This document shows, piece by piece, positions 16,501-53,865 of a stretch of DNA of 64,000 nt. The stretch spans positions 15,167,776-15,231,775 of the forward strand of contig NC_047072.1 of the NCBI RefSeq assembly GCF_902459465.1, given 5' to 3'. This DNA comes from Asterias rubens (Eukaryota). A program made the translations under genes and the position numbers. Positions within the stretch are counted from its first letter, which is position 1. Every line of letters begins with the position of its first letter. The notes below the pieces were generated by a model. The model saw only the letters and a program-made list of their open reading frames with translations, made no database searches and was not told the origin of the DNA.

Positions 16501-17349
16501 AGTTGCGATAACGTAATCTCCTGCCGACGTCGTAGCCGGAGGCCTGGCGGTCGTCGGCATGGTTGGGGGGGAGGAGGGTTACGTTATAATCGCAACTATA
16601 TCAGATCATGATTCATGTATAAAAAATGTCGTAATAGTGTGTCAACTTAACCACATTAATTTTGGTGCAGACTTCTTTAATATCCTGATAAAAAAAACTC
16701 TAATCTAATATTAATAAACAGTAAAAATCAGTATTGGCCCAATCAAAACATGTGTGTAACAATAAAAAATGAACAGCATGCATCAAAACAACATCCACAT
16801 CGATTAATTAGTTATAATGAATTGGGCAATTGTTGCTAATTTAATTCTGCCAATCGAGCTCGCTGATTGCAAACACTCGACCATTGTTCGAGGTAGTGGC
16901 TGGGTTTATTACCGCCACCTACTTTTTGACGTGTATACTTACAATACTAAGGCCATGTCTGAATTGGCGGCTACAGATATGCATTGAGGTATAGGTCGTC
17001 CAATAGTTGTAGCTACACATATGCATTGAGGTATAGGTCGTCCAATAGTTGTAGCTACAGGGATGCGTTGAGGTATAGGTCGTCCAATAGTTGTAGCTAC
17101 AGATATGCGTTGAGGTATAGGTCGTCCAATAGTTGTAGCTACAGATATGCGTTGAGGTATAGGTCGTCCAATAGTTGTAGCTACAGATATGCGCTGAGGT
17201 ATAGGTCGTCCAATAGTTGTAGCTACAGATATGCATTGAGGTATAGGTCGTCCAATAGTTGTAGCCATAGTACATGTAGTTGCGATAACGTAACCCTCCT
17301 CCCGACGGCGTAGCTTCACCATCAGGATGAGGGTTACGTTATCGCAACT
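16501..17349. mobile_element. Composite repeat: two palindromic hairpin modules (16501-16606 and 17277-17349) flanking a 6 x 60-bp tandem array (16922-17277)
   Basis: Both ends begin 'agttgcgataacgtaa(t/c)c.cc' and end 'gggttacgtta(ta)atcgcaact', so each is a hairpin. The internal unit aggtataggtcgtccaatagttgtagctacagatatgc(a/g)ttg is repeated six times. The element lies about 165 bp upstream of the PARP4 start codon. Confidence 0.6.
16922..17277. repeat. 60-bp tandem repeat x6
   Basis: The unit ...gaggtataggtcgtccaatagttgtagctacagatatgcgtt... produces nested repeat ORFs on both strands. Confidence 0.85.
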
Positions 17350-17645: not shown

Positions 17646-18061
17646 GTAAGATTAGGGTAATATCTTATTGAGCTCTTGTGAAGAGCTTAAGGGGACCCAC
17701 AACGACTCTGACCCATCATAGGTTGAATGATACATGTGGAGAGAAAATGATGAAGAAATGCCAGTTTGATTAGTTTCGTGGGAGGAAAACCAAACAAAAG
17801 TAGGACTATAAAATATACTTTGTGCTGAGATTAAGAAACAGTCGTTTACAGATTAAATATACTCATATTTTTACAATTATTTGTTGATGCACCTGTGTAC
17901 ATTATATGGAATGGGCGCAATATAAATGAATAAATTATTATTAAATGGATAAATTATAATTTGTTAAGGAAAGGGGGATGGAAACTTCTTATTACTTTGT
18001 ACGCATTGCATTGACTGTATTTAAAGCTGAACCTTTTCCCACAATCTTATTGTCTTTGCAG

Positions 18062-18260
18062 ACATCCTTCTTAGTTGCCAGCAATGGAGCCAAGACAGCT
18101 GACTCTTATAAAGGCCGCACTGCCCAGAAGCAAGGGGTTCCCATTGTTGGAGTCAGCTTTATAGAGAAATGTGTAGAGGAGGGACGCTTGCTGGACAAAG
18201 ATGACTTCCTATTGGTTGGCACTACTGCAAACATGCAGTTTGGCTCAGGCAAAATCACAA
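18062..18260 (+). CDS. PARP4: PARP4 exon 2: TSFLVASNGAKTADSYKGRTAQKQGVPIVGVSFIEKCVEEGRLLDKDDFLLVGTTANMQFGSGKIT (BRCT)
   Basis: Acceptor tgtctttgcAG, donor GTGAGA. Matches human 'CTHIILDNADVL...IANPDFIWKSIREKRLLDVKNY'. Confidence 0.85.
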
Positions 18261-18415
18261 GTGAGAAACACTGCTCCAAATTATTATCTTAAATACTGTA
18301 ACAACTGATATCTGTTGAATACTTGAGAATTTTGTTTGGTCGAACTGTCAAAGTTGTATCTCATCAGTTTGGCTTTTCTAATCTTTGTTACTGGTTTTAT
18401 TTCATCAATCAACAG

Positions 18416-23089: not shown

Positions 23090-23094
<5 letters not shown>

Positions 23095-23120
<26 letters not shown>

Positions 23121-23130
23121 GCAAATGGAT
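23095..23130. repeat. (AG)n microsatellite
   Basis: agagagagag... about 18 units. Confidence 0.9.
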
Positions 23131-23170
23131 GTTTTATGAGAGGGGCTTTGACCAATAGGTGGACAAACTG

Positions 23171-23211
23171 CAGCCTTGATTTTGATGATGATGATGATGA
23201 TAACGATGATA

Positions 23212-23260
<49 letters not shown>

Positions 23261-23262
23261 GC
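23171..23262. repeat. (GAT)n microsatellite with GAT/AAT/AAC variants
   Basis: gatgatgatgataacgatgataatgatgatg... about 30 units. Confidence 0.9.
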
Positions 23263-23295
23263 CAAGTTTAATTTGATTTATTTGTTTTCAAACAG

Positions 23296-25249: not shown

Positions 25250-26412
25250 TTCTACTTATTCTATTTCCTGTCACTAGGGTTTCCTTTTACGTATTATACT
25301 ATTCCTGTCACTAGGGTTTCCTTTTACTTATTATACTATTCCTGTCACTAGGGTTTCCTTTTACTTATTATACTATTCCTGTAACTAGGGTTTCCTTTTA
25401 CTTATTATACTATTCCTGTCACTAGGGTTTCCTTTTACTTATTATACTATTCCTGTCACTAGGGTTTCCTTTTACTTATTATACTATTCCTGTCACTAGG
25501 GTTTCCTTTTACTTATTATACTATTCCTGTCACTAGGGTTTCCTTTTACTTATTATACTATTCCTGTCACTAGGGTTTCCTTTTACTTATTATACTATTC
25601 CTGTCACTAGGGTTTCCTTTTACTTATTATACTATTCTTGTCACTAGGGTTTCCTTTTACTTATTATACCATTCCTGTCACTAGGGTTTCCTTTTACTTA
25701 TTATACTATTCCTGTCACTAGGGTTTCCTTTTACTTATTATACTATTCCTGTCACTAGGGTTTCCTTTTACTTATTATACTATTCCTGTCACTAGGGTTT
25801 CCTTTTACTTATTATACTATTCCTGTCACTAGGGTTTCCTTTTACTTATTATACCATTCCTGTCACTAGGGTTTCCTTTTACTTATTATACTATTCCTGT
25901 CACTAGGGTTTCCTTTTACTTATTATACTATTCCTGTTACTAGGGTTTCCTTTTACTTATTATACTATTCCTGTCACTAGGGTTTCCTTTTACTTATTAT
26001 ACTATTCCTGTCACTAGGGTTTCCTTTTACTTATTATACTATTCCTGTCACTAGGGTTTCCTTTTACTTATTATACTATTCCTGTCACTAGGGTTTCCTT
26101 TTACTTATTATACTATTCCTGTCACTAGGGTTTCCTTTTACTTATTATACTATTCCTGTCACTAGGGTTTCCTTTTACTTATTATACTATTCCTGTCACT
26201 AGGGTTTCCTTTTACTTATTATACTATTCCTGTCACTAGGGTTTCCTTTTACTTATTATACTATTCCTGTCACTAGGGTTTCCTTTTACTTATTATACTA
26301 TTCCTGTCACTAGAGTTTCCTTTTACTTATTATACTATTCCTGTCCACAATGGTTCTTCCTTTTACTTATTATACTATTCCTGTCCACAATGGTTCTTCC
26401 TTTTATATGACA
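25250..26412. repeat. 40-bp minisatellite, about 29 units (ttcctgtcactagggtttccttttacttattatactat), in PARP4 intron 12, running into the exon-13 acceptor
   Basis: Near-perfect head-to-tail copies. The last two units degenerate (ttcctgtccacaatggttcttccttttac) and supply the polypyrimidine tract of the acceptor at 26413. Confidence 0.9.
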
Positions 26413-26413
26413 G

Positions 26414-26588
26414 GACGATGAATATGTTGTGTACAACACAAATCAACAGCGACTTCGTTTCTTGATTGAGTTTTCATTACCCGATGATAAACCGACAACC
26501 TTACCTGTGTGTGACAATGAGGGCGCTAAAGATGTCGAAGAAGACGTTGATGTGGATAACATTACAGAAGCGCTATCAACTCCCATTG
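26414..26588 (+). CDS. PARP4: PARP4 exon 13: DDEYVVYNTNQQRLRFLIEFSLPDDKPTTLPVCDNEGAKDVEEDVDVDNITEALSTPI(G) (catalytic Glu in DDEYVVY)
   Basis: The acceptor ...ttttatatgacAG is derived from the upstream 40-bp minisatellite. Donor GTATAT. Matches human 'DDEFVVYKTNQVKMKYIIKFSMPGDQ'. Confidence 0.9.
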
Positions 26589-26906
26589 GTATATTTGATT
26601 GTACTATATTTCTTTTGCATTTGTTTGATTTCAGCGAGAATTTTTAAGATAATCATAACTTGTTATGGTGAAGTTCAGGGTCGCATCCTGTAATATTTCT
26701 TTGATGATTGTTTGCAGGCGGCCATACAAAATTCTTTACAGCCAATAATTCATAAAGGGATATTAACATGATTATGTGAGTATTTGAATAACAGTGACTT
26801 GCAAATTACACAAGCTGGCCAGAGATCAATAACGTGTAACATTTAAGGTCGTTTCTAAACCAACTATCATGTTTTAACAATGATCTTATTCCTGTTTAAC
26901 TCATAG

Positions 26907-29080: not shown

Positions 29081-29194
29081 GTGAGAGGAAAAAATATTTT
29101 CAAAGCTTCAGATCATTCGGAAAATTGTTTGCCTTCTGAAAACTACTTCTTATTTTTTCCTTTTTTACATTTGTGTTTATTTATTTGTTGACAG

Positions 29195-29525
29195 CAAACA
29201 GCAGCTAAAGCAACTGTCTGCCTGTCAGAAAAGTGTAGCGGACTTGATGATGGATTCCAACTTCTGATTGGCTTAGCGGAGATTCATGTTCCCCGAATGT
29301 GGGCGGAGAGACACCCCACAGAGAAGGACAGCCAAGCATGCATGCTGACCTTCTACCCTGAGTTTGATGCTAACAGCTCTAGCCAATCAGAAGTGGTGAT
29401 TCTTTTGGACTTGTCCAATTCAATGCGAGGAGGAAGCAATCTGCAAGATGCAAAGAAACTTGTGATGTTGATCCTTCATCATATGGCCAAGGACTGCAAG
29501 TTCAATATCGTTGTTTTTGGAACGG
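29195..29525 (+). CDS. PARP4: PARP4 exon 18: QTAAKATVCLSEKCSGLDDGFQLLIGLAEIHVPRMWAERHPTEKDSQACMLTFYPEFDANSSSQSEVVILLDLSNSMRGGSNLQDAKKLVMLILHHMAKDCKFNIVVFGT(G) (start of vWA, MIDAS DxSxS)
   Basis: Acceptor tttgttgacAG, donor GTAATT. Matches human '...LPRMWVEKHPEKESEACMLVFQPDLD...SESEVIICLDCSSSMEGVTFLQAKQIALHALSLVGEKQKVNIIQFGTG'. Confidence 0.9.
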
Positions 29526-30104
29526 GTAATTAACAAAGAAAACAATTCCTTTATTCTTTAGAATGAATATTGTTTTTACTTCTACGATTTCAAGATTGGA
29601 AACTGGTCTGGATTTCAGAATGAATCGCTATTCCTATCATGTCATCAACACAAACTGTGGTTTTCATTGTCGCAGTGTGATGAGAAAATTAATTTCAGTC
29701 TACTGGAGTGTCATGGCCGAGCAGTCTATGTGCACTATGTTGAAGCTCCGTCCTTTACAGAGTATGGGTTCGAATCCTGACCTAGTAGTTAATAATGATG
29801 CGTTAGTCTTTGAGCAAGATACGTATACAATATTTGAAGGGACAAAATGCTCTAGATCCAATAGATTGGTATGCACATAATAGAATAAAAAAACATTTAT
29901 CTTGGACGAGAAGGGGTTTACCTTGTGGTTTATCCAAGCACCCTTTTCTACAGGTTTCCTCAGACATCCAAGTTACAGTGATATATTTACTTTTGAAGCA
30001 TTCTTTGTTTCATTACTTGAAATTAAAAATGTTAATAATAACTGTATGTTTATTCACTTCCCTGGATTGTATTAATGCACACTGATTTCATCTTCCTTCC
30101 TCAG

Positions 30105-33739: not shown

Positions 33740-35012
33740 CTTTTTTCCCTGAAATGTGTTCATCACTTGATGCTTGAAGGCGTGGCACCCTAGATGCATC
33801 AGAGAGGCCATCGAGATCCACAAGCATGACACCGCTTGATGCTTGATTCTGTGTTCATCACTTGATGCTTGAAGGCGTGGCACCCTAGACGCATCAGAGA
33901 GGCCATCGAGATCCACAAGCATGACACCGCTTGATGCTTGATTCTGTGTTCATCACTTGATGCTTGAAGGCGTGGCACCCTAGACGCATCAGAGAGGCCA
34001 TCGAGATCCACAAGCATGACACCGCTTGATGCTTGAAGGCGTGGCACCCTAGACGCATCAGAGAGGCCATCGAGATCCACAAGCATGACACCGCTTGATG
34101 CTTGATTCTGTGTTCATCACTTGATGCTTGAAGGCGTGGCACCCTAGACGCATCAGAGAGGCCATCGAGATCCACAAGCATGACACCGCTTGATGCTTGA
34201 AGGCGTGGCACCCTAGACGCATCAGAGAGGCCATCGAGATCCACAAGCATGACACCGATTGATGCTTGATTCTGTGTTCATCACTTGATGCTTGAAGGCG
34301 TGGCACCCTAGACGCATCAGAGAGGCCATCGAGATCCACAAGCATGACACCGCTTGATGCTTGATTCTGTGTTCATCACTTGATGCTTGAAGGCGTGGCT
34401 CCCTAGATGCATCAGAGAGGCCATCGAGATCCACAAGCATGACACCGCTTGATGCTTGATTCTGTGTTCATCACTTGATGCTTGAAGGCGTGGCTCCCTA
34501 GATGCATCAGAGAGGCCATCGAGATCCACAAGCATGACACCGCTTGATGCTTGATTCTGTGTTCATCACTTGATGCTTGAAGGCGTGGCACCCTAGACGC
34601 ATCAGAGAGGCCATCGAGATCCACAAGCATGACACCGCTTGATGCTTGATTCTGTGTTCATCACTTGATGCTTGAAGGCGTGGCACCCTAGACGCATCAG
34701 AGAGGCCATCGAGATCCACAAGCATGACACCGCTTGATGCTTGAAGGCGTGGCACCCTAGACGCATCAGAGAGGCCATCGAGATCCACAAGCATGACACC
34801 GCTTGATGCTTGATTCTGTGTTCATCACTTGATGCTTGAAGGCGTGGCACCCTAGACGCATCAGAGAGGCCATCGAGATCCACAAGCATGACACCGCTTG
34901 ATGCTTGATTCTGTGTTCATCACTTGATGCTTGAAGGCGTGGCACCCTAGACGCATCAGAGAGGCCATCGAGATCCACAAGCATGACACCGCTTGATGCT
35001 TGATTCTGTGGG
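33740..35012. repeat. Satellite with a 95-bp unit and a 69-bp deletion variant in a higher-order pattern, about 14 units, in PARP4 intron 25
   Basis: The unit is gcatgacaccgcttgatgcttg[attctgtgttcatcacttgatgcttg]aaggcgtggcaccctagacgcatcagagaggccatcgagatccacaa. The bracketed 26 bp is absent in some units. Minus-strand repeat ORFs 'MLVDLDGLSDASRVPRLQASS...' are artefacts. Confidence 0.9.
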
Positions 35013-35523: not shown

Positions 35524-37300
35524 GGTAGTAAATTGATGTGTGTAGGGTGGGGGTAATAAATTGATGTGTGTAGGGTGGGGGTAGATATACACATTCATAT
35601 GGTGGCCATAAAACAAAAGGGGCTCTTTGTTTTGTACACTGTGGGGGTAGATATACACATTCATATGGTGGCCATAAAACAAAAGGGGCTCTTTGTTTTG
35701 TACACTGTGGGGGTAGATATACACATTCATATGGTGACCATAAAACAAAAGGGGCTCTTTGTTTTGTACACTGTGGGGGTAGATATACACATTCATATGG
35801 TGGCCATAAAACAAAAGGGGCTCTTTGTTTTGTACACTGTGGGGGTAGATATACACATTCATATGGTGGCCATAAAACAAAAGGGGCTCTTTGTTTTGTA
35901 CACTGTGGGGGTAGATATACACATTCATATGGTGGCCATAAAACAAAAGGGGCTCTTTGTTTTGTACACTGTGGGGGTAGATATACACATTCATATGGTG
36001 GCCATAAAACAAAAGGGGCTCTTTGTTTTGTACACTGGGGGTAGATATACACATTCATATGGTGGCCATAAAACAAAAGGGGCTCTTTGTTTTGTACACT
36101 GGGGGTAGATATACACATTCATATAGTGGCCATAAAACAAAAGGGGCTCTTTGTTTTGTACACTGGGGGTAGATATACACATTCATATGGTGGCCATAAA
36201 ACAAAAGAGGCTCTTTGTTTTGTACACTGGGGGTAGATATACACATTCATATGGTGGCCATAAAACAAAAGGGGCTCTTTGTTTTGTACACTGGGGGTAG
36301 ATATACACATTCATATGGTGGCCATAAAACAAAAGGGGCTCTTTGTTTTGTACACTGTGGGGGTAGATATACACATTCATATGGTGGCCATAAAACAAAA
36401 GGGGCTCTTTGTTTTGTACACTGTGGGGGTAGATATACACATTCATATGGTGGCCATAAAACAAAAGGGGCTCTTTGTTTTGTACACTTGGGGTAGATAT
36501 ACACATTCATATGGTGGCCATAAAACAAAAGGGGCTCTTTGTTTTGTACACTGTGGGGGTAGATATACACATTCATATGGTGGCCATAAAACAAAAGGGG
36601 CTCTTTGTTTTGTACACTGGGGGTAGATATACACATTCATATGGTGGCCATAAAACAAAAGGGGCTCTTTGTTTTGTACACTGGGGGTAGATATACACAT
36701 TCATATGGTGGCCATAAAACAAAAGAGGCTCTTTGTTTTGTACACTGGGGGTAGATATACACATTCATATGGTGGCCATAAAACAAAAGGGGCTCTTTGT
36801 TTTGTACACTGGGGGTAGATATACACATTCATATGGTGGCCATAAAACAAAAGGGGCTCTTTGTTTTGTACACTGGGGGTAGATATACACATTCATATGG
36901 TGGCCATATAACAAAAGGGGCTCTTTGTTTTGTACACTGGGGGTAGATATACACATTCATATGGTGGCCATAAAACAAAAGAGGCTCTTTGTTTTGTACA
37001 CTGGGGGTAGATATACACATTCATATGGTGGCCATAAAACAAAAGGGGCTCTTTGTTTTGTACACTGGGGGTAGATATACACATTCATATGGTGGCCATA
37101 AAACAAAAGGGGCTCTTTGTTTTGTACACTGGGGGTAGATATACACATTCATATGGTGGCCATAAAACAAAAGGGGCTCTTTGTTTTGTACACTGGGGGG
37201 GTAGATATACACATTCATATGGTGGCCATATAACAAAAGGGGCTCTTTGTTTTGTACACGTGGGGGAAGATATAAACATTCTACGGCGGCCATATAACAA
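35524..37300. repeat. 64/66-bp satellite, about 27 units (gggggtagatatacacattcatatggtggccataaaacaaaaggggctctttgttttgtacact[gt]), in PARP4 intron 26
   Basis: Highly homogeneous copies starting 12 bp after the exon-26 donor. Long repeat-phase ORFs on both strands are artefacts. Confidence 0.9.
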
Positions 37301-38289
37301 AAGGGACAATAGGTCCGCACGCTGGACAAAGGGAAAACAATTCAACAGTGGAGTTCGACAGACTTGGGTGCTCCACAAGGAAATTTGTACACAAAGTCTC
37401 TGTAGGTTATTAACTACAGGGAAAAGGGAAAGAAGAAAAGATGTCTTTAAAGTGATGCAAAAAAATAGAATGAGCATGGGCATGTGCAAAACCAATTGGG
37501 ACGTCTGAAAAAAAACTATGTCCAAACAATGGGAGAACAAAGAGAAGTCCTCGGTACACCATAAACATACATGTATGTGCGTGGGGGTGTGTGTGTGTGT
37601 GTATAAAGCCCATATTGACAGCTGATTAAAAACTGCTCACCAATTAAAATAAAGTGAGGGACAAATACAAATGCAGGTAACAATTGTCAATCGCCTGACA
37701 CATCAACCTTAACAGAGTCTTTCTCAATAGCTTAATGAAAACTCACCACACAAGCACATGAGTGTAACAGAAGAGGACAAGGAAAGAGCAGAATAGACTC
37801 AGATGACACATAACATGAAAAAAGCAACCAGGAAGGGGGATTGAGATAGAAAGTTAGTGGTTACCTTGGGTAGATATATATCACATCCCAATGACAAAGT
37901 TGGGAAAGGTGCTTTGAAAAATGGTTTCATTTTTATCAACAATGTGAGGTTTCTGAGGAAATTAGCCACCACCAAAGAAATCCCTTAAAAACAGAACACC
38001 ACACAAACCTGCATGTTTAATGTATTTAACCACTCTATGGAAGGATAGATTTTTAACATCGTTACTAAATAATAATAAATAATAATAAATCCTTCTTGTA
38101 AAGTGCATTCCGGCATGGCCCCAATGCACTGTGCAGGCATGAAGCTATTTTAAAGAACACAAACAAATTATTCAGCTACACATTGTTATACAAAAACGCA
38201 TAAATAGAAATTTCACAAGATGAAGAAAAACAACTGGCAGGAGAAAATGTTTGACAAGTCACATGCTTAGCAGATGTGTTTTAAGTGAA

Positions 38290-38457
38290 CTCTTGAACAG
38301 ATCTTGTGTTTCTTTTTTTTTTAACTACAGCTATATCTCGACCCCTAGAAGATGAGGATATTATGGACTCATTATGACAGATCTTGTGTTTCTTTTTTTT
38401 TTAACTACAGCTATATCTCGACCCCTAGAAGATGAGGATATTATGGACTCATTCGGA
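38290..38457. repeat. 84-bp tandem duplication spanning the exon-27 acceptor
   Basis: cagatcttgtgtttcttttttttttaactacagctatatctcgacccctagaagatgaggatattatggactcatt occurs twice. The first copy ends ...ctcattATGACAG with an in-frame TGA. The second continues the ORF. Confidence 0.85.
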
Positions 38458-41157: not shown

Positions 41158-41464
41158 GTGAGCATTAATTACACCAGTGAGGGCCTACCATTATTTGTGT
41201 ACCCCTTTGACATCAGTTTCAGTGACTTTCACATACAACCAAATCTAAAGTCAATACGATTTGCCTGTTAATATTTGTCAATGTAGGAACAACTGATTTA
41301 TGAAAACGTTTGTTTGTATTGAGTGGGATTAAACAAGTTGTTAGAACCATTGATGTTAGTATACATGTATGCTGGTTTGGGAACTAATTTTGTTTGAAAA
41401 AAGACAAACAGTTTTCTTGTTTACCAATGTCTTAAAGCTTGTGACTATGTTTTCTTTTTCTCAG

Positions 41465-43028
41465 GGCTTTGAGAAATTTAAAAAACAAGTGGAAGGTTCA
41501 AATAAAAAGAAGGAAGTACCAGCTAGTTCGGAGGCAGTATTTGACAGTTCAATGTCAGAAATTAACAATAGCTTGTTTGAAGAACCTCTACTGACATCTG
41601 GACTTAGGTCATCTAGATTGAGCATCAAAGCTTCCCTACAATCACTGCCACATCTGTCACTCATGTCATATGCATTAGGATCATCTGTGGAAAAAGGCCC
41701 TCCATCACTACCACCCCCAATCCCAAGTGCATCTGGGTTATCTGTAACCGATAGAGGTGAGTCGCCAGTCAACACAACATTCCAAGCAGCAAAACAAACT
41801 GAGGCATCTACTTATGGAGAATTTGGTTCATCTCAGCAGCCAGCTATGTTTAAGGGACTTCCACCACCCACACCACTAGCACTAAGAACTGGATCAGTGG
41901 GATTTGGAGAAGCCAAGGCAGGTTTGTTTGGTGGACCTTCACCACCACCACGAGCAGCTGAGTCAGTGGGATTTGGAGAAGCCAAAGCAGGTTTGTTTGG
42001 TGGACCTCTACCACGACGACCAGCACCTAGGGCAGGAAGAATTCGAGACACCAATGCATGTTTGTTTGGTGGACCTCCAGCACCAGCACCTAGGGCAGGG
42101 GAATTTGGAGAAGCCAAGTCATTATCGTTTGGTGGACCACCACCAAGACCACCTTCACCCAGGGCAGTGGGATTTGGAGACGCCAAGTCATTATCGTTTG
42201 GTGGACCTCCACCACCACCACCACCAGCACCTAGGGCAGTGGGATTTGGAGACGCCAAGTCATTATCGTTTGGTGGACCTCCACCACCACCACCACCAGC
42301 ACCTAGGGCAGTGGGATTTGGAGACGCCAAGTCATTATCGTTTGGTGGACCTCCACCACCACCACCAAGGGCAGTCGGCATGGTGGGATTTGGAGAAGCC
42401 AAGTCATTATCGTTTGGTGGACCTCAACCACCACCACCAGCACCTAGGGTCGGGGGATTTAGAGAAGGCCAAGCAGGTTTGTTTGGTGGACCACTACCGC
42501 CACCACCAGCAGCTGGGTCAGTGGGATTTGGAGAAGCCAAGTCATTATCGTTTGGTGGACCTCCACCACCACCAGCAGCACCTAGGACAGGGCGATTTGG
42601 AGAAGCCAAGGCAGGTCCGTTTGGTGGACCTCCACCACCACCTTGGGCAGGGCGATTTGGACAACAACAGCAACAGCAGCAGCAAATTGTTGTAATTCCA
42701 CCACCACCACGAGCAGCTGAGTCAGTGGCATTTGGAGAAGCCAAAGCAGGTTTGTTTGGTGGACCTCCACCACCACCACGAGCAGCTGAGTCAGTGGCAT
42801 TTGGAGAAGCCAAAGCAGGTTTGTTTGGTGGACCTCTACCACGACGACCAGCACCTAGGCCAGGGGGAATTCGAGACACCAATGCAGGACCTCCACCACT
42901 ACCACCTAGGGCAGGGCGATTTGGAGAAGCCAAGGCAGGTTTTTTTGGTGGACCTCCAAAAAGTGCTGATAAGTTGTCGATGCCCTTGAGTGCCACTTCT
43001 AAAGACAGACTCTGTGATATTGACAAAG
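41465..43028 (+). CDS. PARP4: PARP4 exon 31 (1564 bp): GFEKFKKQVEGSNKKKEVPASSEAVFDSS... followed by about 17 tandem repeats of (V)GFGEAK(A/S)(G/L)(L/S)FGGPPPPPP(A)PRA, ending ...KSADKLSMPLSATSKDRLCDIDK(G)
   Basis: Acceptor ttttctttttctcAG, donor GTAAGA at 43029. One frame stays open for 521 codons. The other frames give HHHH-rich or GGGG-rich artefact ORFs. Phase 0 in, phase 1 out, fitting exon 32. Confidence 0.7.
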
Positions 43029-43089: not shown

Positions 43090-44462
43090 GTAACTACTGT
43101 AAAGAGCTCCAATGCATTAGAGTCAACTCAAATGCGCATCATTCATTAGGAATGGTTATCATTCCTCAATTACTGTAAAGAGCTCCAATGCATTAGAGCC
43201 AACTCAAATGCGTATCATTCATTAGGAATGGTTATCATTCCTCAATTACTGTAAAGAGCTCCAATGCATTAGAGCCAACTCAAATGCGTATCATTCATTA
43301 GGAATGGTTATCATTCCTCAATTACTGTAAAGAGCTCCAATGCATTAGAGCCAACTCAAATGCGCATCATTCATTAGGAATGGTTATCATTCCTCAATTA
43401 CTGTAAAGAGCTCCAATGCATTAGAGCCAACTCAAATGCGTATCATTCATTAGGAATGTTTATCATTCCTCAATTACTGTAAAGAGCTCCAATGCATTAG
43501 AGCCAACTCAAATGCGTATCATTCATTAGGAATGGTTATCATTCCTCAATTACTGTAAAGAGCTCCAATGCATTAGAGCCAACTCAAATGCGCATCATTC
43601 ATTAGGAATGGTTATCATTCCTCAATTACTGTAAAGAGCTCCAATGCATTAGAGCCAACTCAAATGCGTATCATTCATTAGGAATGGTTATCATTCCTCA
43701 ATTACTGTAAAGAGCTCCAATGCATTAGAGCCAACTCAAATGCGTATCATTCATTAGGAATGGTTATCATTCCTCAATTACTGTAAAGAGCTCCAATGCA
43801 TTAGAGCCAACTCAAATGCGTATCATTCATTAGGAATGGTTATCATTCCTCAATTACTGTAAAGAGCTCCAATGCATTAGAGCCAACTCAAATGCGTATC
43901 ATTCATTAGGAATGGTTATCATTCCTCAATTACTGTAAAGAGCTCCAATGCATTAGAGCCAACTCAAATGCGTATCATTCATTAGGAATGGTTATCATTC
44001 CTCAATTACTGTAAAGAGCTCCAATGCATTAGAGCCAACTCAAATGCGTATCATTCATTAGGAATGGTTATCATTCCTCAATTACTGTAAAGAGCTCCAA
44101 TGCATTAGAGCCAACTCAAATGCGTATCATTCATTAGGAATGGTTATCATTCCTCAATTACTGTAAAGAGCTCCAATGCATTAGAGCCAACTCAAATGCG
44201 TATCATTCATTAGGAATGGTTATCATTCCTCAATTACTGTAAAGAGCTCCAATGCATTAGAGCCAACTCAAATGCGTATCATTCATTAGGAATGGTTATC
44301 ATTCCTCAATTACTGTAAAGAGCTCCAATGCATTAGAGCCAACTCAAATGCGTATCATTCATTAGGAATGGTTATCATTCCTCAATTACTGTAAAGAGCT
44401 CCAATGCATTAGAGCCAACTCAAATGCGTATCATTCATTAGGAATGGTTATCATTCCTCAAT
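43090..44462. repeat. About 84-bp satellite, about 16 units, starting about 60 bp after the exon-31 donor
   Basis: The unit is tgtaaagagctccaatgcattagagccaactcaaatgcg(t/c)atcattcattaggaatggttatcattcctcaattac. Confidence 0.9.
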
Positions 44463-44578: not shown

Positions 44579-44664
44579 ATATGGACATTGAGACCAGTGT
44601 TAGGATTAGTGATGGTAGCACTAACATCGATGGAGTTATGGTTCTTCTTACACAACAAAGGAAG
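44579..44664 (+). CDS. PARP4: PARP4 exon 32: (D)MDIETSVRISDGSTNIDGVMVLLTQQRK
   Basis: Acceptor tattaaaaatgcAG, donor GTAGGA. Phase 1 in, phase 0 out. Confidence 0.55.
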
Positions 44665-45171: not shown

Positions 45172-45271
45172 GCTGGATTTTGGTCATTTGGGTCTGTTTT
45201 TGAGTCAGTTGTGGGGGTGAGGTGCTCATACATTTCACAGATGTTGATTGATGCTGGTGTAAAATCACTAG
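45172..45271 (+). CDS. PARP4: PARP4 exon 33: AGFWSFGSVFESVVGVRCSYISQMLIDAGVKSL
   Basis: Acceptor cgcttttttttcAG, donor GTAAGT. Similar to human 'DGFWKLTPELGLILNLNTNGLHSFLKQKGIQSLG' in the C-terminal MVP-interaction region. Confidence 0.7.
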
Positions 45272-45926
45272 GTAAGTAAGATCGCTGTATGATGAATAAT
45301 TATCCTCTACTTAAATAGATCAAGTTAAGAGTCTTCAGGCTGTTTGACAAGTTGTGTTAATATCGGCCTTCAGTCAATCAAATTAAAGTTCCTGTGTCAA
45401 ATCAGTGTAATGTAGTTTTATTAAACAGTAAAGTTATCAGTTTCGCACAGCTGTGTAGAAGCTTCTGAGGAAATGTTAGTTTTTCTGGTCTTCTTATTTA
45501 AAAAGTCCGTCTATGCAAGACCATGCTGTCACCTTGTCACCTGTTGCTCTCAACAAGCTGCTTGGACAGAAGTTTCATTCATAGCGCCATTTCCCTAGAG
45601 AACAGTCTTCCTGTCTCTTTTGTTTGCAGCATTCCTAAGGAAGGGATTCAATCTTTCAAATGCTTCATGAACACCTTACATAAATCAGCAAGGTGATTCT
45701 TAGATGCTACTTATATATATCTCGCTGTTTTCTTGTATTCAGCAGTTTTTGAGTCCCAGAGAACTAGGTGATTAGCCAATCAGAGCTCTTGGTTCAAGGG
45801 CCTTTAGTGTGGTTTTATTTGTCTTTCTGTTCATTAACATTGTTATATCTTAATAGGCTATTGTTCACATTTACTCCTTAAGCATCTACAGAATCTATGT
45901 GGACTAAACAACCTGTTTTATTACAG

Positions 45927-46195
45927 GGAGCAACGTGGCTCGACTTCTTGAGCAGCTTGTAACAACATACCTCGTCATTCTCTGCCTAAACAAGGTTCTG
46001 AACCTCTCATCAACTCGCCACTTCAATAGCAAAGAAAGAGAGAGTACTGTAGAAGCGGTTGTGAATGCAGAGAGATGGGTAGCCCAGGTCGAGAGGGATC
46101 ACCCATCCATGGCTCGACGTCTAGAACTTGGAAGTAGTTGGCATGAGGTCTGTACCAACATCTTTCAACCTCTCATCAACTCGCCACTTCAATAG
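45927..46195 (+). CDS. PARP4: PARP4 last coding exon: (G)SNVARLLEQLVTTYLVILCLNKVLNLSSTRHFNSKERESTVEAVVNAERWVAQVERDHPSMARRLELGSSWHEVCTNIFQPLINSPLQ*
   Basis: Acceptor tgttttattacAG. The TAG stop ends at 46195. Matches human '...RECLLDLIATMLVLQFIRTRLEKEG...IKQASEWVRRTEGQYPSICPRLELGNDWDSATKQLLG'. Confidence 0.8.
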
Positions 46196-46667
46196 CAAAG
46201 AAAGAGAGAGTACTGTAGAAGCGGTTGTGAATGCAGAGAGATGGGTAGCCCAGGTCGAGAGGGATCACCCATCCATGGCTCGATGTCTAGAACTTGGAAG
46301 TAGTTGGCATGAGGTCTGTACCAACATCTTTCAACCTCTCATCAACTCGCCACTTCAATAACAAAGAAAGAGAGAGTACTGTGGAAGCGGTTGTGAATGC
46401 AGAGAGATGGGTAGCCCAGGTCGAGAGGGATCACCCATCCATGGCTCGACGTCTAGAACTTGGAAGTAGTTGGCATGAGGTCTGTACCAACATCTTTCAA
46501 CCTCTCATCAACTCGCCACTTCAATAACAAAGAAAGAGAGAGTACTGTGGAAGCGGTTGTGAATGCAGAGAGATGGGTAGCCTAGGTCGAGAGGGATCAC
46601 CCATCCATGGCTCGACGTCTTGAACTTGGAAGTAGTTGGAATGAGGTCTGTACCAACATCTTTAAGG
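46002..46667. repeat. 166-bp tandem repeat x4 covering the last about 55 codons and stop of PARP4 plus three downstream copies
   Basis: The unit acctctcatcaactcgccacttcaata(g/a)caaagaaagagagagtact...ggcatgaggtctgtaccaacatctttca starts at 46002, 46168, 46334 and 46500. Each copy retains an in-frame stop, so the ORFs 46128-46361 and 46294-46527 echo the true terminal exon. Confidence 0.9.
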
Positions 46668-47095
46668 GAGGTAAAGAAGTTGCACAGGTGGCGAATTGAA
46701 CCAAGACAAGATTAAAAGGATAGTTACATGATTAAAGGCATGGTGTACTTCTGGTAATCTTCAAAGACAAATATTCTCACTCGGTGTATCCCTATATATG
46801 CATAAATTAAACTTGGGTACAATTGGTTTTTAAAGTTGCACAAATATAATTGAAGAAAAAACCAACCACCATTTCATGAAAGTGTGTGCTTTCAGATGCA
46901 AGTGAAAAGGGTTTGTGAAAACTACCTCTTTCTCTAAAACTACATTTCTTCAAAACGTGTATTTCAAAATGTCACCACTCAACAAAATGAACTAGACACA
47001 GGTTGAATTATTGTGGTGTATATTGGATAGCAGAGGAGAGCATGTTTTGGCTCTAACACCAATAATAAAGAATCTTGTCAGACCAACTAGGAAAA

Positions 47096-47276
47096 CAATG
47101 AAATAAAAATCTTTGACTTGCTTCAGAATAGTGCCAAGAGAAAAAAACAATCTGTTTCCCCCAAAACACGTCTAAACAAGAAAAACAATGAAATAAAAAT
47201 CTTTGACTTGCCTCAGAATAGTGTCAAGAGAAAAAAACAATCTGTTTCCCCCAAAACACGTCTAAACAAGAAAAAC
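47096..47276. repeat. 90-bp tandem duplication
   Basis: caatgaaataaaaatctttgacttgc.tcagaatagtg.caagagaaaaaaacaatctgtttcccccaaaacacgtctaaacaagaaaaaca occurs twice. Confidence 0.85.
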
Positions 47277-48365
47277 ATAAATAGACAATGGGTATATTTT
47301 GCTGCGAGATAAAGCTGTCCCTTGTATATTTGATCCCTTTTTCTATCATTTTTATTTTCATAATGAAATCCGATATTGTCTTTCAAAATTAACAACAGAT
47401 TATACAGAACAACTCAATCTTATGTAAACAATAATTTTTGTGAACAAATAAATTGTTAGAAATATAAATATAATTGACCCTTTGCATATTGCCAACAAGA
47501 GTTAAACAGCGCCCTCACTCAGTCTAAATGAAGGCCTCTCATTGGCTGATAGTTTTGTATGGAGTGTATACTTTTGCATGATTCCATTGTTTGACCTATG
47601 CATTGGTTGGCCTATGTAAGGGGCATGTGTATAATGTGGATGTAATTTATATTTTTTTATGAATGCAGATAATGTATTACTATGGATACATAACAAATGG
47701 CTGACTGTATTTTTTTTATCTTACAATATTGCTATTCAGGACAGTTCAACCATTTAGATTAATATAGTGTTAAAAAAAAGTATGCTAACATTTAATCAGG
47801 CAAATTAGATACATTATAGTCAAGCCAATTTGTTATATATAATAAAGCAAATTATATGCAATAATCCCTTTCCCCTCTTTTTTTCTATAAATGGATATGT
47901 ATTTGTTTGTACTTATTTTATGCCTCTGAAGAAGGTCCGGTTTGGATTGGAAGCTAAGGCCATCTACCCTATTCATTATTAATAATGCAAATTAGATACA
48001 TTTAATAATGTTATTTAGATACATATATTACTGATAATTAGATACATATAATTATGCAAGTAGATACATATAACGCAAATCAGAATTACCATAATCATTG
48101 AGACAGTGTGCCTTGTTTTCTAATTGACGAAACAACAGCTATAGTTTTCTGAAAATTTACACTTTTAATATATAATCTTGCCCTTACTGCTCAAAAAAAT
48201 AATATTAAAATTGACTGTTCAGTCCGTATCCATATTAAAAACAAATGCGTCTATGGTTACAATTGTTATTACAAACAACTCGTTCAGCTTCATAGGAGTA
48301 AGAGATTGCCTAGTTTAAAATGTTATTAGATTGTTTCTCGGGTTTGATAGAACCTATTTTAAATA

Positions 48366-49631: not shown

Positions 49632-49744
49632 CTTGTTGAGAAACATCTTACGTTTCAATCAGTTGATGTTCCTCAATACAGACCATTAATTTGTGTGCTG
49701 GACAAACCAAACTTTCGATGGTACAGAAATCTTGGGACGGAACA

Positions 49745-50251
49745 ATGAGTTTTCTCAATGTCTTAATGGCAATAATGGCGGCCATGACTGGAATGGGAGT
49801 AGATGCGGAATGTGCCACGCCCTACTGCCCACCACCATGGCACGGCTTTGAAGGCAATTGTTACCAGTTTATTGATCTTCAGAAGTCATGGCTTGAAGCT
49901 GAGAAACACTGCCAGATGTTATCCCACCCAGGCAAGATGGTTCATCTAGCATCCATTCACAGTAACAAGGAGGATGCCTTCATCGGCAGTTTGGTCAAGT
50001 CTTTAAAGCATTCCAAGAAAACGAAGGCAGATGAGGGCGAGTCTTATTGGATCGGTTACCATGACATTGGACATGAGAATGTGCATCAATGGATTGATGA
50101 GACGGCTGCTGTCTACTGCAATTGGGCTACAGGCGAACCTAATAACTACCCTGAGAGTGAGAACTGCGTGGAGAAGTACAAACAATATGCATCTCAAAAA
50201 TGGAATGATTTTGACTGTAACGCAAAACAACAGTTTGTCTGCAAATTGTGA
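49745..50251 (+). CDS. Secreted C-type lectin (single CTLD, EPN/WND mannose-type motifs), intronless: MSFLNVLMAIMAAMTGMGVDAECATPYCPPPWHGFEGNCYQF...WIGYHDIGHENVHQWIDETAAVYCNWATGEPNNYPESENCVEKYKQYASQKWNDFDCNAKQQFVCKL*
   Basis: Continuous ORF with an N-terminal signal peptide, a CTLD cysteine framework, WIGL-like 'YWIGY', 'GEPNN' and 'WNDFDC'. ATG 49745 has A at -3. The in-frame ATG at 49718 (MVQKSWDGT-) is an alternative. The ORF-track start at 49691 is TTG. Confidence 0.8.
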   Translation: MSFLNVLMAIMAAMTGMGVDAECATPYCPPPWHGFEGNCYQFIDLQKSWLEAEKHCQMLSHPGKMVHLASIHSNKEDAFIGSLVKSLKHSKKTKADEGESYWIGYHDIGHENVHQWIDETAAVYCNWATGEPNNYPESENCVEKYKQYASQKWNDFDCNAKQQFVCKL

Positions 50252-51905: not shown

Positions 51906-52610
51906 TTGCATCTGACACCGGCATAAAACGTCTAGAGGTGGCGGTGAAACTTTCGTCTCAAACGTAGCCTTCACGCGCTGTGAAAGCCCCCCCCCCCCAA
52001 TTCGGCAAGTTCCTTCAACCAAAGTGACTCTTTTATAACACTCCCGTGACCTTCATGACCTGGTATTAAAGTTGCATGATCTGATTTTCGCCGAACGAAT
52101 TTTTACAGATGATGCTGTTTGCAAACGAAAAACAAACAATCTCTTTTTTGTACTAAGCCCTGTGCCACGAGCAACCACCCGAAATCAACTATTTTGTTGA
52201 TGTTTGTTGTTGTTTGTTAATGACCACTTTAATGGCGGATTTCTTGTGTGCTATTGAAGTTGAAGCAAGATATAAAAAATAAATAGAAATGTGTTTGAAA
52301 CAAATTTAGGCCGATCTTTTCTAAAAATTATTGACAAGTTGATCGGACATGAATCTCGGCTGATAGGCCCATGAGTGTATTTAGGAAGTAATTTAGACTG
52401 CATGTTATCTGGACTAGATAATACTCCTACGTGGTGGAGAGGATTTGCTGTGTTGACATTTTATTTAAAACCCCATGATCAAAGGATCAAAGTTCAGATT
52501 GTGTATTGAGCAATGTGTGTACAATAAAATGTAACTAGTGCTGTCTGATTAAACTCCATCCCAATTGGTTGTAAAGTGTTCTACGAAAAGGTTTTTTTAT
52601 AAACACAACA

Positions 52611-52983
52611 ATGTTCACCTTCATTGTGGCAGTCTTAACAGCCTGTGTCAGTGGATACTGGCTTGGGCAACGGGTGATTGGATTTTATTTCAGAAAGCGC
52701 TTGGATCCATGGGGTAAAGCAGTTCTCGTTTCTGGTTGTGATACGGGCTTCGGTAACGCCCTGGCTAGCCGACTTCATGGCCTCGGATTCACCGTGTTTG
52801 CTGGGTGTTTGGACTCCAAATGCGAGGGGGCTCTAAAGCTGGTGAAGGAGGCTAAACAAATGGAACGAGATGACGGAAGATCGAAAAGACCACGTATGAA
52901 GGTGATTCAGATGGACATTTGCAACGATAAGGAAGTCGCTGAAAGTGTGAGGACTGTTTCAAGTTTACTACCAAAGGATACAG
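52611..52983 (+). CDS. BDH1: BDH1-like (D-beta-hydroxybutyrate dehydrogenase, SDR) exon 1: MFTFIVAVLTACVSGYWLGQRVIGFYFRKRLDPWGKAVLVSGCDTGFGNALASRLHGLGFTVFAGCLDSKCEGALKLVKEAKQMERDDGRSKRPRMKVIQMDICNDKEVAESVRTVSSLLPKDT(G)
   Basis: ATG at 52611, donor GTAACG at 52984. Matches human BDH1 '[32 protein letters not shown]...[26 protein letters not shown]'. Confidence 0.85.
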
Positions 52984-53145
52984 GTAACGTATTATCCCAC
53001 TCTCATTGTCTGTGCCTTTCCGTTGGAAATGTTTCAACATAATAACCCAAACACTCTAACAAACACAAATAATGGGAGGGAGTTTTCTTGATACAATACT
53101 CTTTTTATTTTAAACTGATAACACTTGACCCTTTAATTCCTGCAG

Positions 53146-53298
53146 GATTGTGGGGTATCGTCAACAATGCTGGTCTGTCGACCTTCGGAGAGGTGGAGTG
53201 GTGCAATTTGGAAATGTTTCATCGTGTAGCTGACGTCAACATATGGGGAGGGGTCAGAGTGGTGAAAGCGTTCCTACCACTCATCCGAAGAGCAAAGG
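53146..53298 (+). CDS. BDH1: BDH1-like exon 2: (G)[50 protein letters not shown](G)
   Basis: Acceptor ttaattcctgcAG, donor GTGAGT. Matches human '[51 protein letters not shown]'. Confidence 0.9.
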
Positions 53299-53398
53299 GT
53301 GAGTACCAAATAAAAATACAAAAAAGAACTCCAAAAAGCTTGTGTTTTGTCTGAAAGTTTTGTTTCTAAATCAATATTTTATGTGTCTAACCCAACAG

Positions 53399-53865
53399 GT
53401 CGAATTATCCAAATGACCAGTGGCCTTGCTCGTCAAGGTCACCCTGGACGTTCCTGTTACGTCCTCTCCAAGTATGCCATGGAAGGCTTCTCTCAGTGTC
53501 TGAGGTATGAGATGCGGCGATGGGGTGTACACGTTAGTATCATCGAACCAGGAAACTTCATTGCTGCAACAGGGATCTTTACACCAGAGAAGATCCGGCA
53601 AATCGCTAATAAGATGTGGGATGGGATGAGTGAAGTGACAAGGCAAGCATACGGCAAGGAGGCATTCGATGCTCAGGTGGAAACCATGAGTTATTATAGT
53701 GGAGTGGGAACCACAGACACCGCGCCTGTTGTAGATGCTATGGTGGCGGCATTAACAGATTCACGGCCCAGGATTCGGTACGAGCCTAAGGACTTGTATT
53801 GGAGACTACGGACTTTTGTGATGTCAATATTGCCTCAAGAGATTGGTGATTGGTTCTACTATTAG
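53399..53865 (+). CDS. BDH1: BDH1-like exon 3: [154 protein letters not shown]
   Basis: Acceptor ctaacccaacAG. The TAG stop ends at 53865. Colinear with human '[145 protein letters not shown]' (SDR YxxxK, 'IEPGNF'). Confidence 0.9.

Follow-up and report, generated by a model that had tools for sequence, protein, structure and literature searches.

The 64,000-nt stretch of Asterias rubens DNA analysed here (the window) carries on its plus strand a gene with the architecture of PARP4. A Pfam scan was run on the stop-to-stop ORFs of this strand, and the exon ORFs were found to lie in the order BRCT-like, PARP_reg, PARP catalytic, VIT, vWA, proline-rich linker and C-terminal helical domain. The BRCT-like ORF (17960-18289), scanned as a single exon ORF, scored 20.3 bits with BRCT_2 and 17.1 bits with BRCT, both below the curated cut-offs. 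It is followed by PARP_reg (PF02877, 21432-21770; 33.1 bits against a cut-off of 26.8), two fragments of the PARP catalytic domain (PF00644, 22650-22847 and 24262-24567; 37.2 and 31.1 bits against a cut-off of 26.7), a third catalytic fragment (26411-26644; 18.0 bits), VIT (PF08487, 27698-28090; 88.8 bits) and vWA (PF13519 VWA_2, 29192-29530; 28.3 bits against a cut-off of 27). To our knowledge, the combination of VIT followed by vWA is found among the PARPs only in PARP4. The best database matches of the gene were named PARP4 or PARP4-like, and its VIT region shares about 66% identity with an oyster PARP4-like protein and 52-54% with vertebrates. The matches to PARP catalytic, PARP_reg, VIT and VWA support the gene name given in a preliminary description of this DNA.

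The last four exons of the gene are consistent in their splice phases. The first of them, a long exon at 41360-43028 which holds a proline-rich in-frame repeat of 69/72 bp, ends with G/gtaaga. The second (44579-44664; ...aatgcag/AT ATG...AAG/gtagga) matches it in phase, encodes (D)MDIETSVRISDGSTNIDGVMVLLTQQRK and, aligning to human PARP4 from residue 1576, represents the start of the MINT (MVP-interaction) region. The penultimate exon (45172-45271; ttttttcag/GCT...CTA G/gtaagt) encodes AGFWSFGSVFESVVGVRCSYISQMLIDAGVKSL(G), within which lies the serine matching human S1614. The last exon starts at 45927 behind an acceptor, ttattacag/GG, that is conserved in the ortholog described below. When spliced, the C-terminal 153 residues align to residues 1576-1700 of human PARP4 with an E-value of 1.9e-5 (phmmer against the PDB sequences 9bw6, 9bw7 and 11jf). 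The human MINT domain comprises residues 1562-1724 and anchors PARP4 to the major vault protein (MVP), with S1614, K1618, Q1682 and R1689 as the MVP-contact residues and the Q1682/R1689 stretch forming helices 7/8 in the numbering of that paper (PMC12280208).

The starfish gene resembles human PARP4 (Q9UKK3) in the order of its domains, as read from the exon ORFs, in the alignment over the MINT region and in the core ...PS(M/I)..RLELG..W, including the residues that match the contacts S1614 and R1689. It differs in that K1618 and Q1682 are not conserved, being N and D here, so that two of the four contacts are kept. A local Pfam scan of the C-terminal domain gave no match even at E <= 1. An AlphaFold2 model of the spliced domain, made without an alignment, suggested helices and was otherwise unusable at a mean pLDDT of 49. 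Homology of the terminal segment to the vertebrate MVP-interaction C-terminus, as already proposed in the preliminary description, is supported by the phmmer result and by the precomputed PF26156 (PARP4_MVP-ID) match of the closest homolog (P0001, see below).

Part of this domain is repeated in tandem within the last exon. Tandem Repeats Finder detected one array at 46001-46663 with a period of 166 bp, 4.0 copies, 98% matches, 0% indels and a score of 1270. When the register was cut base by base, four head-to-tail copies were obtained on the plus strand, at 46001-46166 (copy 1), 46167-46332 (copy 2), 46333-46498 (copy 3) and 46499-46664 (copy 4), the last being joined to native downstream sequence. 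The copies are about 97-100% identical, with one difference between copies 1 and 2, two between 1 and 3, three between 2 and 3, four between 3 and 4, six between 1 and 4 and seven between 2 and 4, so that divergence reaches 3-4% and copy 4 is the most diverged. Four 166-bp copies at such identity cannot be the product of chance, and the copy number and arrangement first proposed were borne out by both the repeat search and the register check. The starting point at 45927 was not, since it marks where the exon begins; the stretch 45927-46000 is unique and lies outside the repeat. The unit derives from the 3' coding part of the last exon and was not found elsewhere within the 64-kb window. An origin from a transposable element was considered and rejected, given that the unit is confined to the array and orthologous to unique coding sequence. 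The minus strand held only short repeat-derived ORFs, and an Rfam scan gave no match above noise.

The unit consists of 165 bp (55 codons) of coding sequence with one extra C at each internal junction. All three internal junctions read ATCTTT-C-AACCTC, the C being the last base of copies 1 to 3 (46166, 46332 and 46498). At the left flank of the array AACCTC is preceded by G, and at the right end ATCTTT is followed by A; this A, at 46664, is the last base of copy 4, the ancestral base at that position and the opening base of the native tail. The same G and A are present in the ortholog. Since flanks and ortholog alike carry G and A there, the junction C is templated by neither flank, and its presence in every junction points to descent of all three from a single founding junction that had a 1-nt filler.

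The consequence of this period lies in the reading frame. Read from 45929, the last exon encodes ...NKVL/NLSSTRHFNSKERE...EVCTNIF through the translated copy 1 (NLSSTRHFNSKERESTVEAVVNAERWVAQVERDHPSMARRLELGSSWHEVCTNIF), continues with QPLINSPLQ in copy 2 and then reaches a stop. Because 166 equals 3 x 55 + 1, the frame is shifted by +1 on entry into copy 2, where TAG 46193-46195 ends translation; the corresponding bases of copy 1 are read as AAT AGC (Asn-Ser). The coding part of the exon as assembled (45927-46195) therefore begins with 74 unique bases, runs through copy 1 and ends, after 26 nt of copy 2 that are read in the shifted frame, with this derived TAG. Copies 2, 3 and 4 lie in frames +1, +2 and 0, respectively, and stops occur in the mRNA frame at 46193, 46301, 46310, 46394, 46412, 46454 and 46583. 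With a period indivisible by three and a frame that is closed across the copies, the repeat is not an in-frame duplication of a protein module. The triplet at unit offset 26-28 is TAG in copies 1 and 2 and TAA in copies 3 and 4, and it is out of frame in the coding frame of each copy itself (AAT AGC or AAT AAC).

These results sort the earlier claims on translation. That 166 is not a multiple of three was correctly recognised, and the peptide that had been quoted is right for frame 0 from 45929. Its ending, QPLINSPLQ, comes from copy 2, whose first 26 nt are read there in the +1 frame, and does not belong to the repeated 55 codons. Copy 1 is indeed translated, as had been stated, but not alone, since those 26 nt are translated as well; by the same token, copies 2-4 as assembled would belong to the 3' UTR, as proposed, only downstream of the first in-frame stop. 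A TAG had been reported in each copy, but two of the four carry TAA and the only in-frame stop of this set is that of copy 2. Finally, it had been suggested that loss of the first stop would append further MVP-binding-like modules. This does not hold, as further +1-frame stops follow at 46301 and 46310 and the copies lie in three frames; only deletion of one junction C would add one in-frame 55-residue module.

The ancestral arrangement could be deduced from a single close relative. A search among 5.8 billion proteins returned one close homolog, an 88-aa protein with 73% identity (P0001), with no copy of the starfish ORF itself in the protein database, and an exact-sequence look-up of this 86-aa ORF gave no match. 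P0001 is encoded on a 1,430-bp environmental contig (JACSEG010024482.1, GCA_014845345.1; L001), of which bases 288-1075 align to window positions 45389-46165 and bases 911-1154 to 46499-46740, while bases 911-1075 match each of the four copies. As one stretch of the contig matches all four copies and the contig is collinear with both flanks, the ortholog is single copy and the array represents the derived state. One copy of the segment each was also found in P0122 (TARA Oceans contig L002), in human PARP4 and in five further metagenome loci, and lineage specificity of the array is supported by this comparison. Of the two matches from an exhaustive HMMER search with P0001, one was P0122 and the other (P0123) was rejected as low-complexity noise. 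It should be noted that the contig (L001, identical to L003) is filed both under the NCBI GCA assembly and in a metagenome collection, and that this piece of an environmental assembly is eukaryotic; the gene called on it, prokaryote-style with a GTG start, is really an internal exon.

The protein P0001 ends with ...EVCTKIFKGGQEDIQVST and a stop, and its terminal stretch, IFKGGQEDIQVST with the stop, matches the sequence after copy 4. There, at 46664-46699 on the plus strand, the window reads AAG GGA GGT AAA GAA GTT GCA CAG GTG GCG AAT TGA, encoding KGGKEVAQVAN and a stop, collinear with the tail KGGQEDIQVST and stop of P0001. KGGKEVAQVAN is evidently the ancestral C-terminus, because the single-copy contig is collinear with both flanks of the array. 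The native stop is thus TGA 46697-46699, after copy 4 and not within the unit as had been supposed, and the native end has been shifted 498 bp downstream. A possible splice donor at the start of this tail (GGGAG/gtaaag, 46665-46675) was considered and rejected, since the ortholog stays open across it, in the same frame, until a stop 11 codons further on. The tail was found to be poorly conserved among three homologs, being KGGKEVAQVAN here, KGGQEDIQVST in P0001 and TKIEDTGVLNETQEA in P0122, which continues past ...IIF with this short tail of its own; orthologs end 11-15 residues after ...IF. The probable native 3' UTR extends from 46700 to 47110 on the plus strand, where a motif scan indicated candidate poly(A) signals at 46711, 46731 and 46806 (ATTAAA) and at 47064 and 47102 (AATAAA). 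Just 3' of the gene, at 47085-47277, there is a 90-bp repeat in 2.1 copies. Each copy of it holds an AATAAA (47102 and 47192), so that candidate poly(A) signals are duplicated as well.

With the environmental contig as outgroup, six substitutions were identified among the copies, all in copies 2-4: none in copy 1, one in copy 2, two shared by copies 3 and 4 and three private to copy 4. Copy 1 carries the outgroup state at five of five polarisable variable positions. The change in copy 2 (46284) replaces Arg with Cys in that copy's own frame, at the second R of MARRLELG, which matches human R1689. Copies 3 and 4 share a G to A change at offset 28 (46361 and 46527), which gives S to N and turns TAG into TAA, and a silent A to G change at offset 50 (46383 and 46549). 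Private to copy 4 are a nonsense change in the native frame (CAG to TAG, 46583-46585), a silent CTA to CTT change at 46621 and an H to N change at 46640. The preliminary description had listed the R to C and S to N substitutions, which are real, and had missed the three of copy 4 at 46583, 46621 and 46640. The pattern is nested, with copies 1 and 2 forming one group, copies 3 and 4 the other and three changes set apart in copy 4. It fits a situation in which copy 1 would be the sole constrained copy and copies 2-4 would be in non-coding decay, because none of the six events is in copy 1 and one of them creates a nonsense codon in copy 4, the only copy to return to frame 0, six substitutions being too few for statistical proof of relaxed constraint. 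Between copy 1 and the contig, dN was 0.115 and dS 0.42 (ratio about 0.27), and the last exon as a whole has evolved under constraint.

Tandem repeats are common throughout the window, about 8.4 kb of which (about 13%) is high-identity tandem repeat (minisatellite). The introns of the gene hold large and very homogeneous minisatellites, at 43095-44462 (76 bp x 18, 99%), 35576-37305 (64 bp x 26.7, about 27 copies, 97%), 25253-26385 (37 bp x 30.6, about 31 copies) and 16970-17265 (42 bp x 7), together with a nested array of 95/69/164/259 bp at 33755-35010. At 38297-38453, a perfect 80-bp duplication (x 2) lies over an intron-exon boundary of the same gene. The duplicated unit takes in a poly-T tract, the acceptor ...aactacag/ and about 46 nt at the start of the exon. 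Its upstream copy represents a decoy 3' splice site, which lies 80 nt before the real one, a distance not divisible by three. The 69/72-bp repeat in exon 41360-43028 (41895-42888) is a coding minisatellite that keeps the reading frame; its copies, about 14 in number and 77-82% identical, encode units of the type GFGEAK(S/A)xxFGGPPPPPPAPRAV in the linker between vWA and MINT. A (TGA)26 microsatellite at 23183-23260 would be read as a poly-Asp/Asn run in ORF 23094-23273.

Taken together, it is likely, in our judgement, that a lineage-specific minisatellite derived from the exon itself has altered the end of this PARP4-like (vault PARP) gene by frameshift. The history would have begun with a tandem duplication of 165 bp, that is, 55 codons of the C-terminal part of MINT, including the stretch that aligns with the human contacts Q1682 and R1689. 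One non-templated C would have been inserted at the junction, giving the 166-bp period; the duplication would have stayed in frame without it. Unequal exchange or replication slippage may then have raised the number of copies from two to four, carrying the junction C to every internal junction. The mutational mechanism is reconstructed here from the products of these steps, and the recent unequal crossover that had been put forward may explain the growth from two to four copies but not the first event, which needed a non-homologous junction with a 1-nt filler. All that follows the new stop, from the remainder of copy 2 through copies 3 and 4 to the former tail with its stop, would have passed into the 3' UTR and into neutral drift. 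The protein as assembled retains a complete MINT core with one full 55-codon copy and has exchanged its 11-residue tail, KGGKEVAQVAN, for the nine frameshift residues QPLINSPLQ, and the 3' UTR is longer by about 500 nt.

The alternative that survives best is that the array is an assembly artefact, with a wrong copy number or representing one haplotype, and that the real or common allele is single copy with the native ending. This is unlikely, although the genome is very rich in tandem repeats and it is here that assemblers most often miscount units. The copies differ at six positions in a nested pattern, which the spurious expansion of one unit would not yield, and the filler C, present in all junctions and absent from both flanks, would have to be invented too.

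It is less probable still that the whole gene is a decaying pseudogene or redundant paralog, with the array as one of several lesions. The second duplication over an exon boundary, at 38297-38453, and the highly repetitive proline-rich exon could be read in this way. However, the ORFs of the PARP_reg, PARP catalytic, VIT and vWA exons are open and reach the Pfam thresholds, the BRCT ORF is open with a match below threshold, the last four exons agree in their splice phases, and the last exon has a dN/dS of about 0.27 against the ortholog.

There is little to recommend splicing of the extra copies out of the mRNA, by which the native C-terminus would be restored. GT/AG pairs in register are present, with donors in copy 1 at 46088 (CAG/GTCGAG) or 46148 (GAG/GTCTGT) and the equivalent AG in copy 4. 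Either pair would remove 498 nt (166 codons), the pair with the donor at 46088 would also remove the TAG of copy 4, and the C to T change in that copy leaves a usable TAG/G acceptor. Against this, the sequence upstream of the putative acceptors is rich in purines and lacks a polypyrimidine tract, both donors are weak, and the candidate sites are ordinary coding sequence in the single-copy ortholog. The H to N change in copy 4 and the pattern of decay would also be less expected if copy 4 were still coding.

Even lower is the probability that the array is functional and, by varying in copy number, acts as a switch at the end of PARP4 that anchors it to vaults. If it did, loss of a junction C by slippage, splicing in register or ribosomal frameshifting at a junction would yield isoforms that either regain the native tail or contain two or more half-MINT modules (each the distal 55 residues), and the number of MVP subunits engaged per PARP4 molecule could change. 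This is disfavoured because copies 2-4 decay, with a nonsense codon and with loss of the residue matching R1689. Lastly, we give almost no weight to a quadruplication of the native last 55 codons with their native stop, leaving the protein unchanged and three silent copies in the 3' UTR. The frames and the single-copy ortholog refute it, for although a stop-like TAG/TAA recurs at offset 26 of every copy, this triplet is out of frame in each copy's own frame, orthologs read through the equivalent bases (AGT AGC in the environmental contig) and the ortholog tail corresponds to the sequence after copy 4.

The favoured reading, an exon-derived frameshifting minisatellite, has limited consequences for the protein. 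It is an established rule that a new stop in the last exon does not trigger nonsense-mediated decay, and no such decay is expected of this transcript, whose new stop is placed there. With one complete copy of the repeated part retained, the vault-anchoring domain probably still works, and the new tail may be tolerated, as the weak conservation of the tail among the three homologs would suggest. If the protein still enters vaults, the native 11-residue tail would be dispensable, which is mildly relevant as the MINT domain serves as a vault-packaging tag; in this respect the gene offers a minor natural experiment. For annotation, where the main value of the result lies, a gene caller or reader will mistake TAG 46193 for the natural end and the repeats for copies of the C-terminus in the 3' UTR. 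Compared with human PARP4, the starfish gene as assembled differs at its end in that the terminal tail is a frameshift peptide and three extra non-coding copies of the distal MINT segment follow the stop.

Out-of-frame internal tandem duplications of terminal exons are known as disease or somatic mutations that replace a C-terminus without nonsense-mediated decay. The array resembles them in that a length indivisible by three leads to a short novel peptide at the C-terminus and to premature termination within the last exon. It differs in that the lesion lies 11 codons from the natural end and keeps one full copy of the domain, and in that it has apparently persisted long enough for amplification to four copies and for divergence of up to 3-4%. 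With minisatellites and tandem segmental duplications, which grow by slippage or unequal exchange, it shares the head-to-tail arrangement, a unit within 10-200 bp, high identity and nested variants, and it has many similar arrays around it within the 64-kb window. Most of those arrays are intronic or intergenic, however, whereas the 166-bp array was seeded from unique terminal-exon coding sequence and carries the 1-nt junction filler that makes it frameshifting. The type of event is ordinary for a repeat-rich animal genome. The array exemplifies a mutational tendency that is general to this genome and differs only by having landed in coding sequence; prone to minisatellites as it is, this genome undergoes tandem duplication in exons and introns alike.

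Two further genes were detected downstream on the plus strand. An ORF with a C-type lectin domain (Lectin_C, E 4e-19) lies at 49667-50248, and a short-chain dehydrogenase (adh_short, E 1.7e-11) extends over at least three exon ORFs at 52575-53862.
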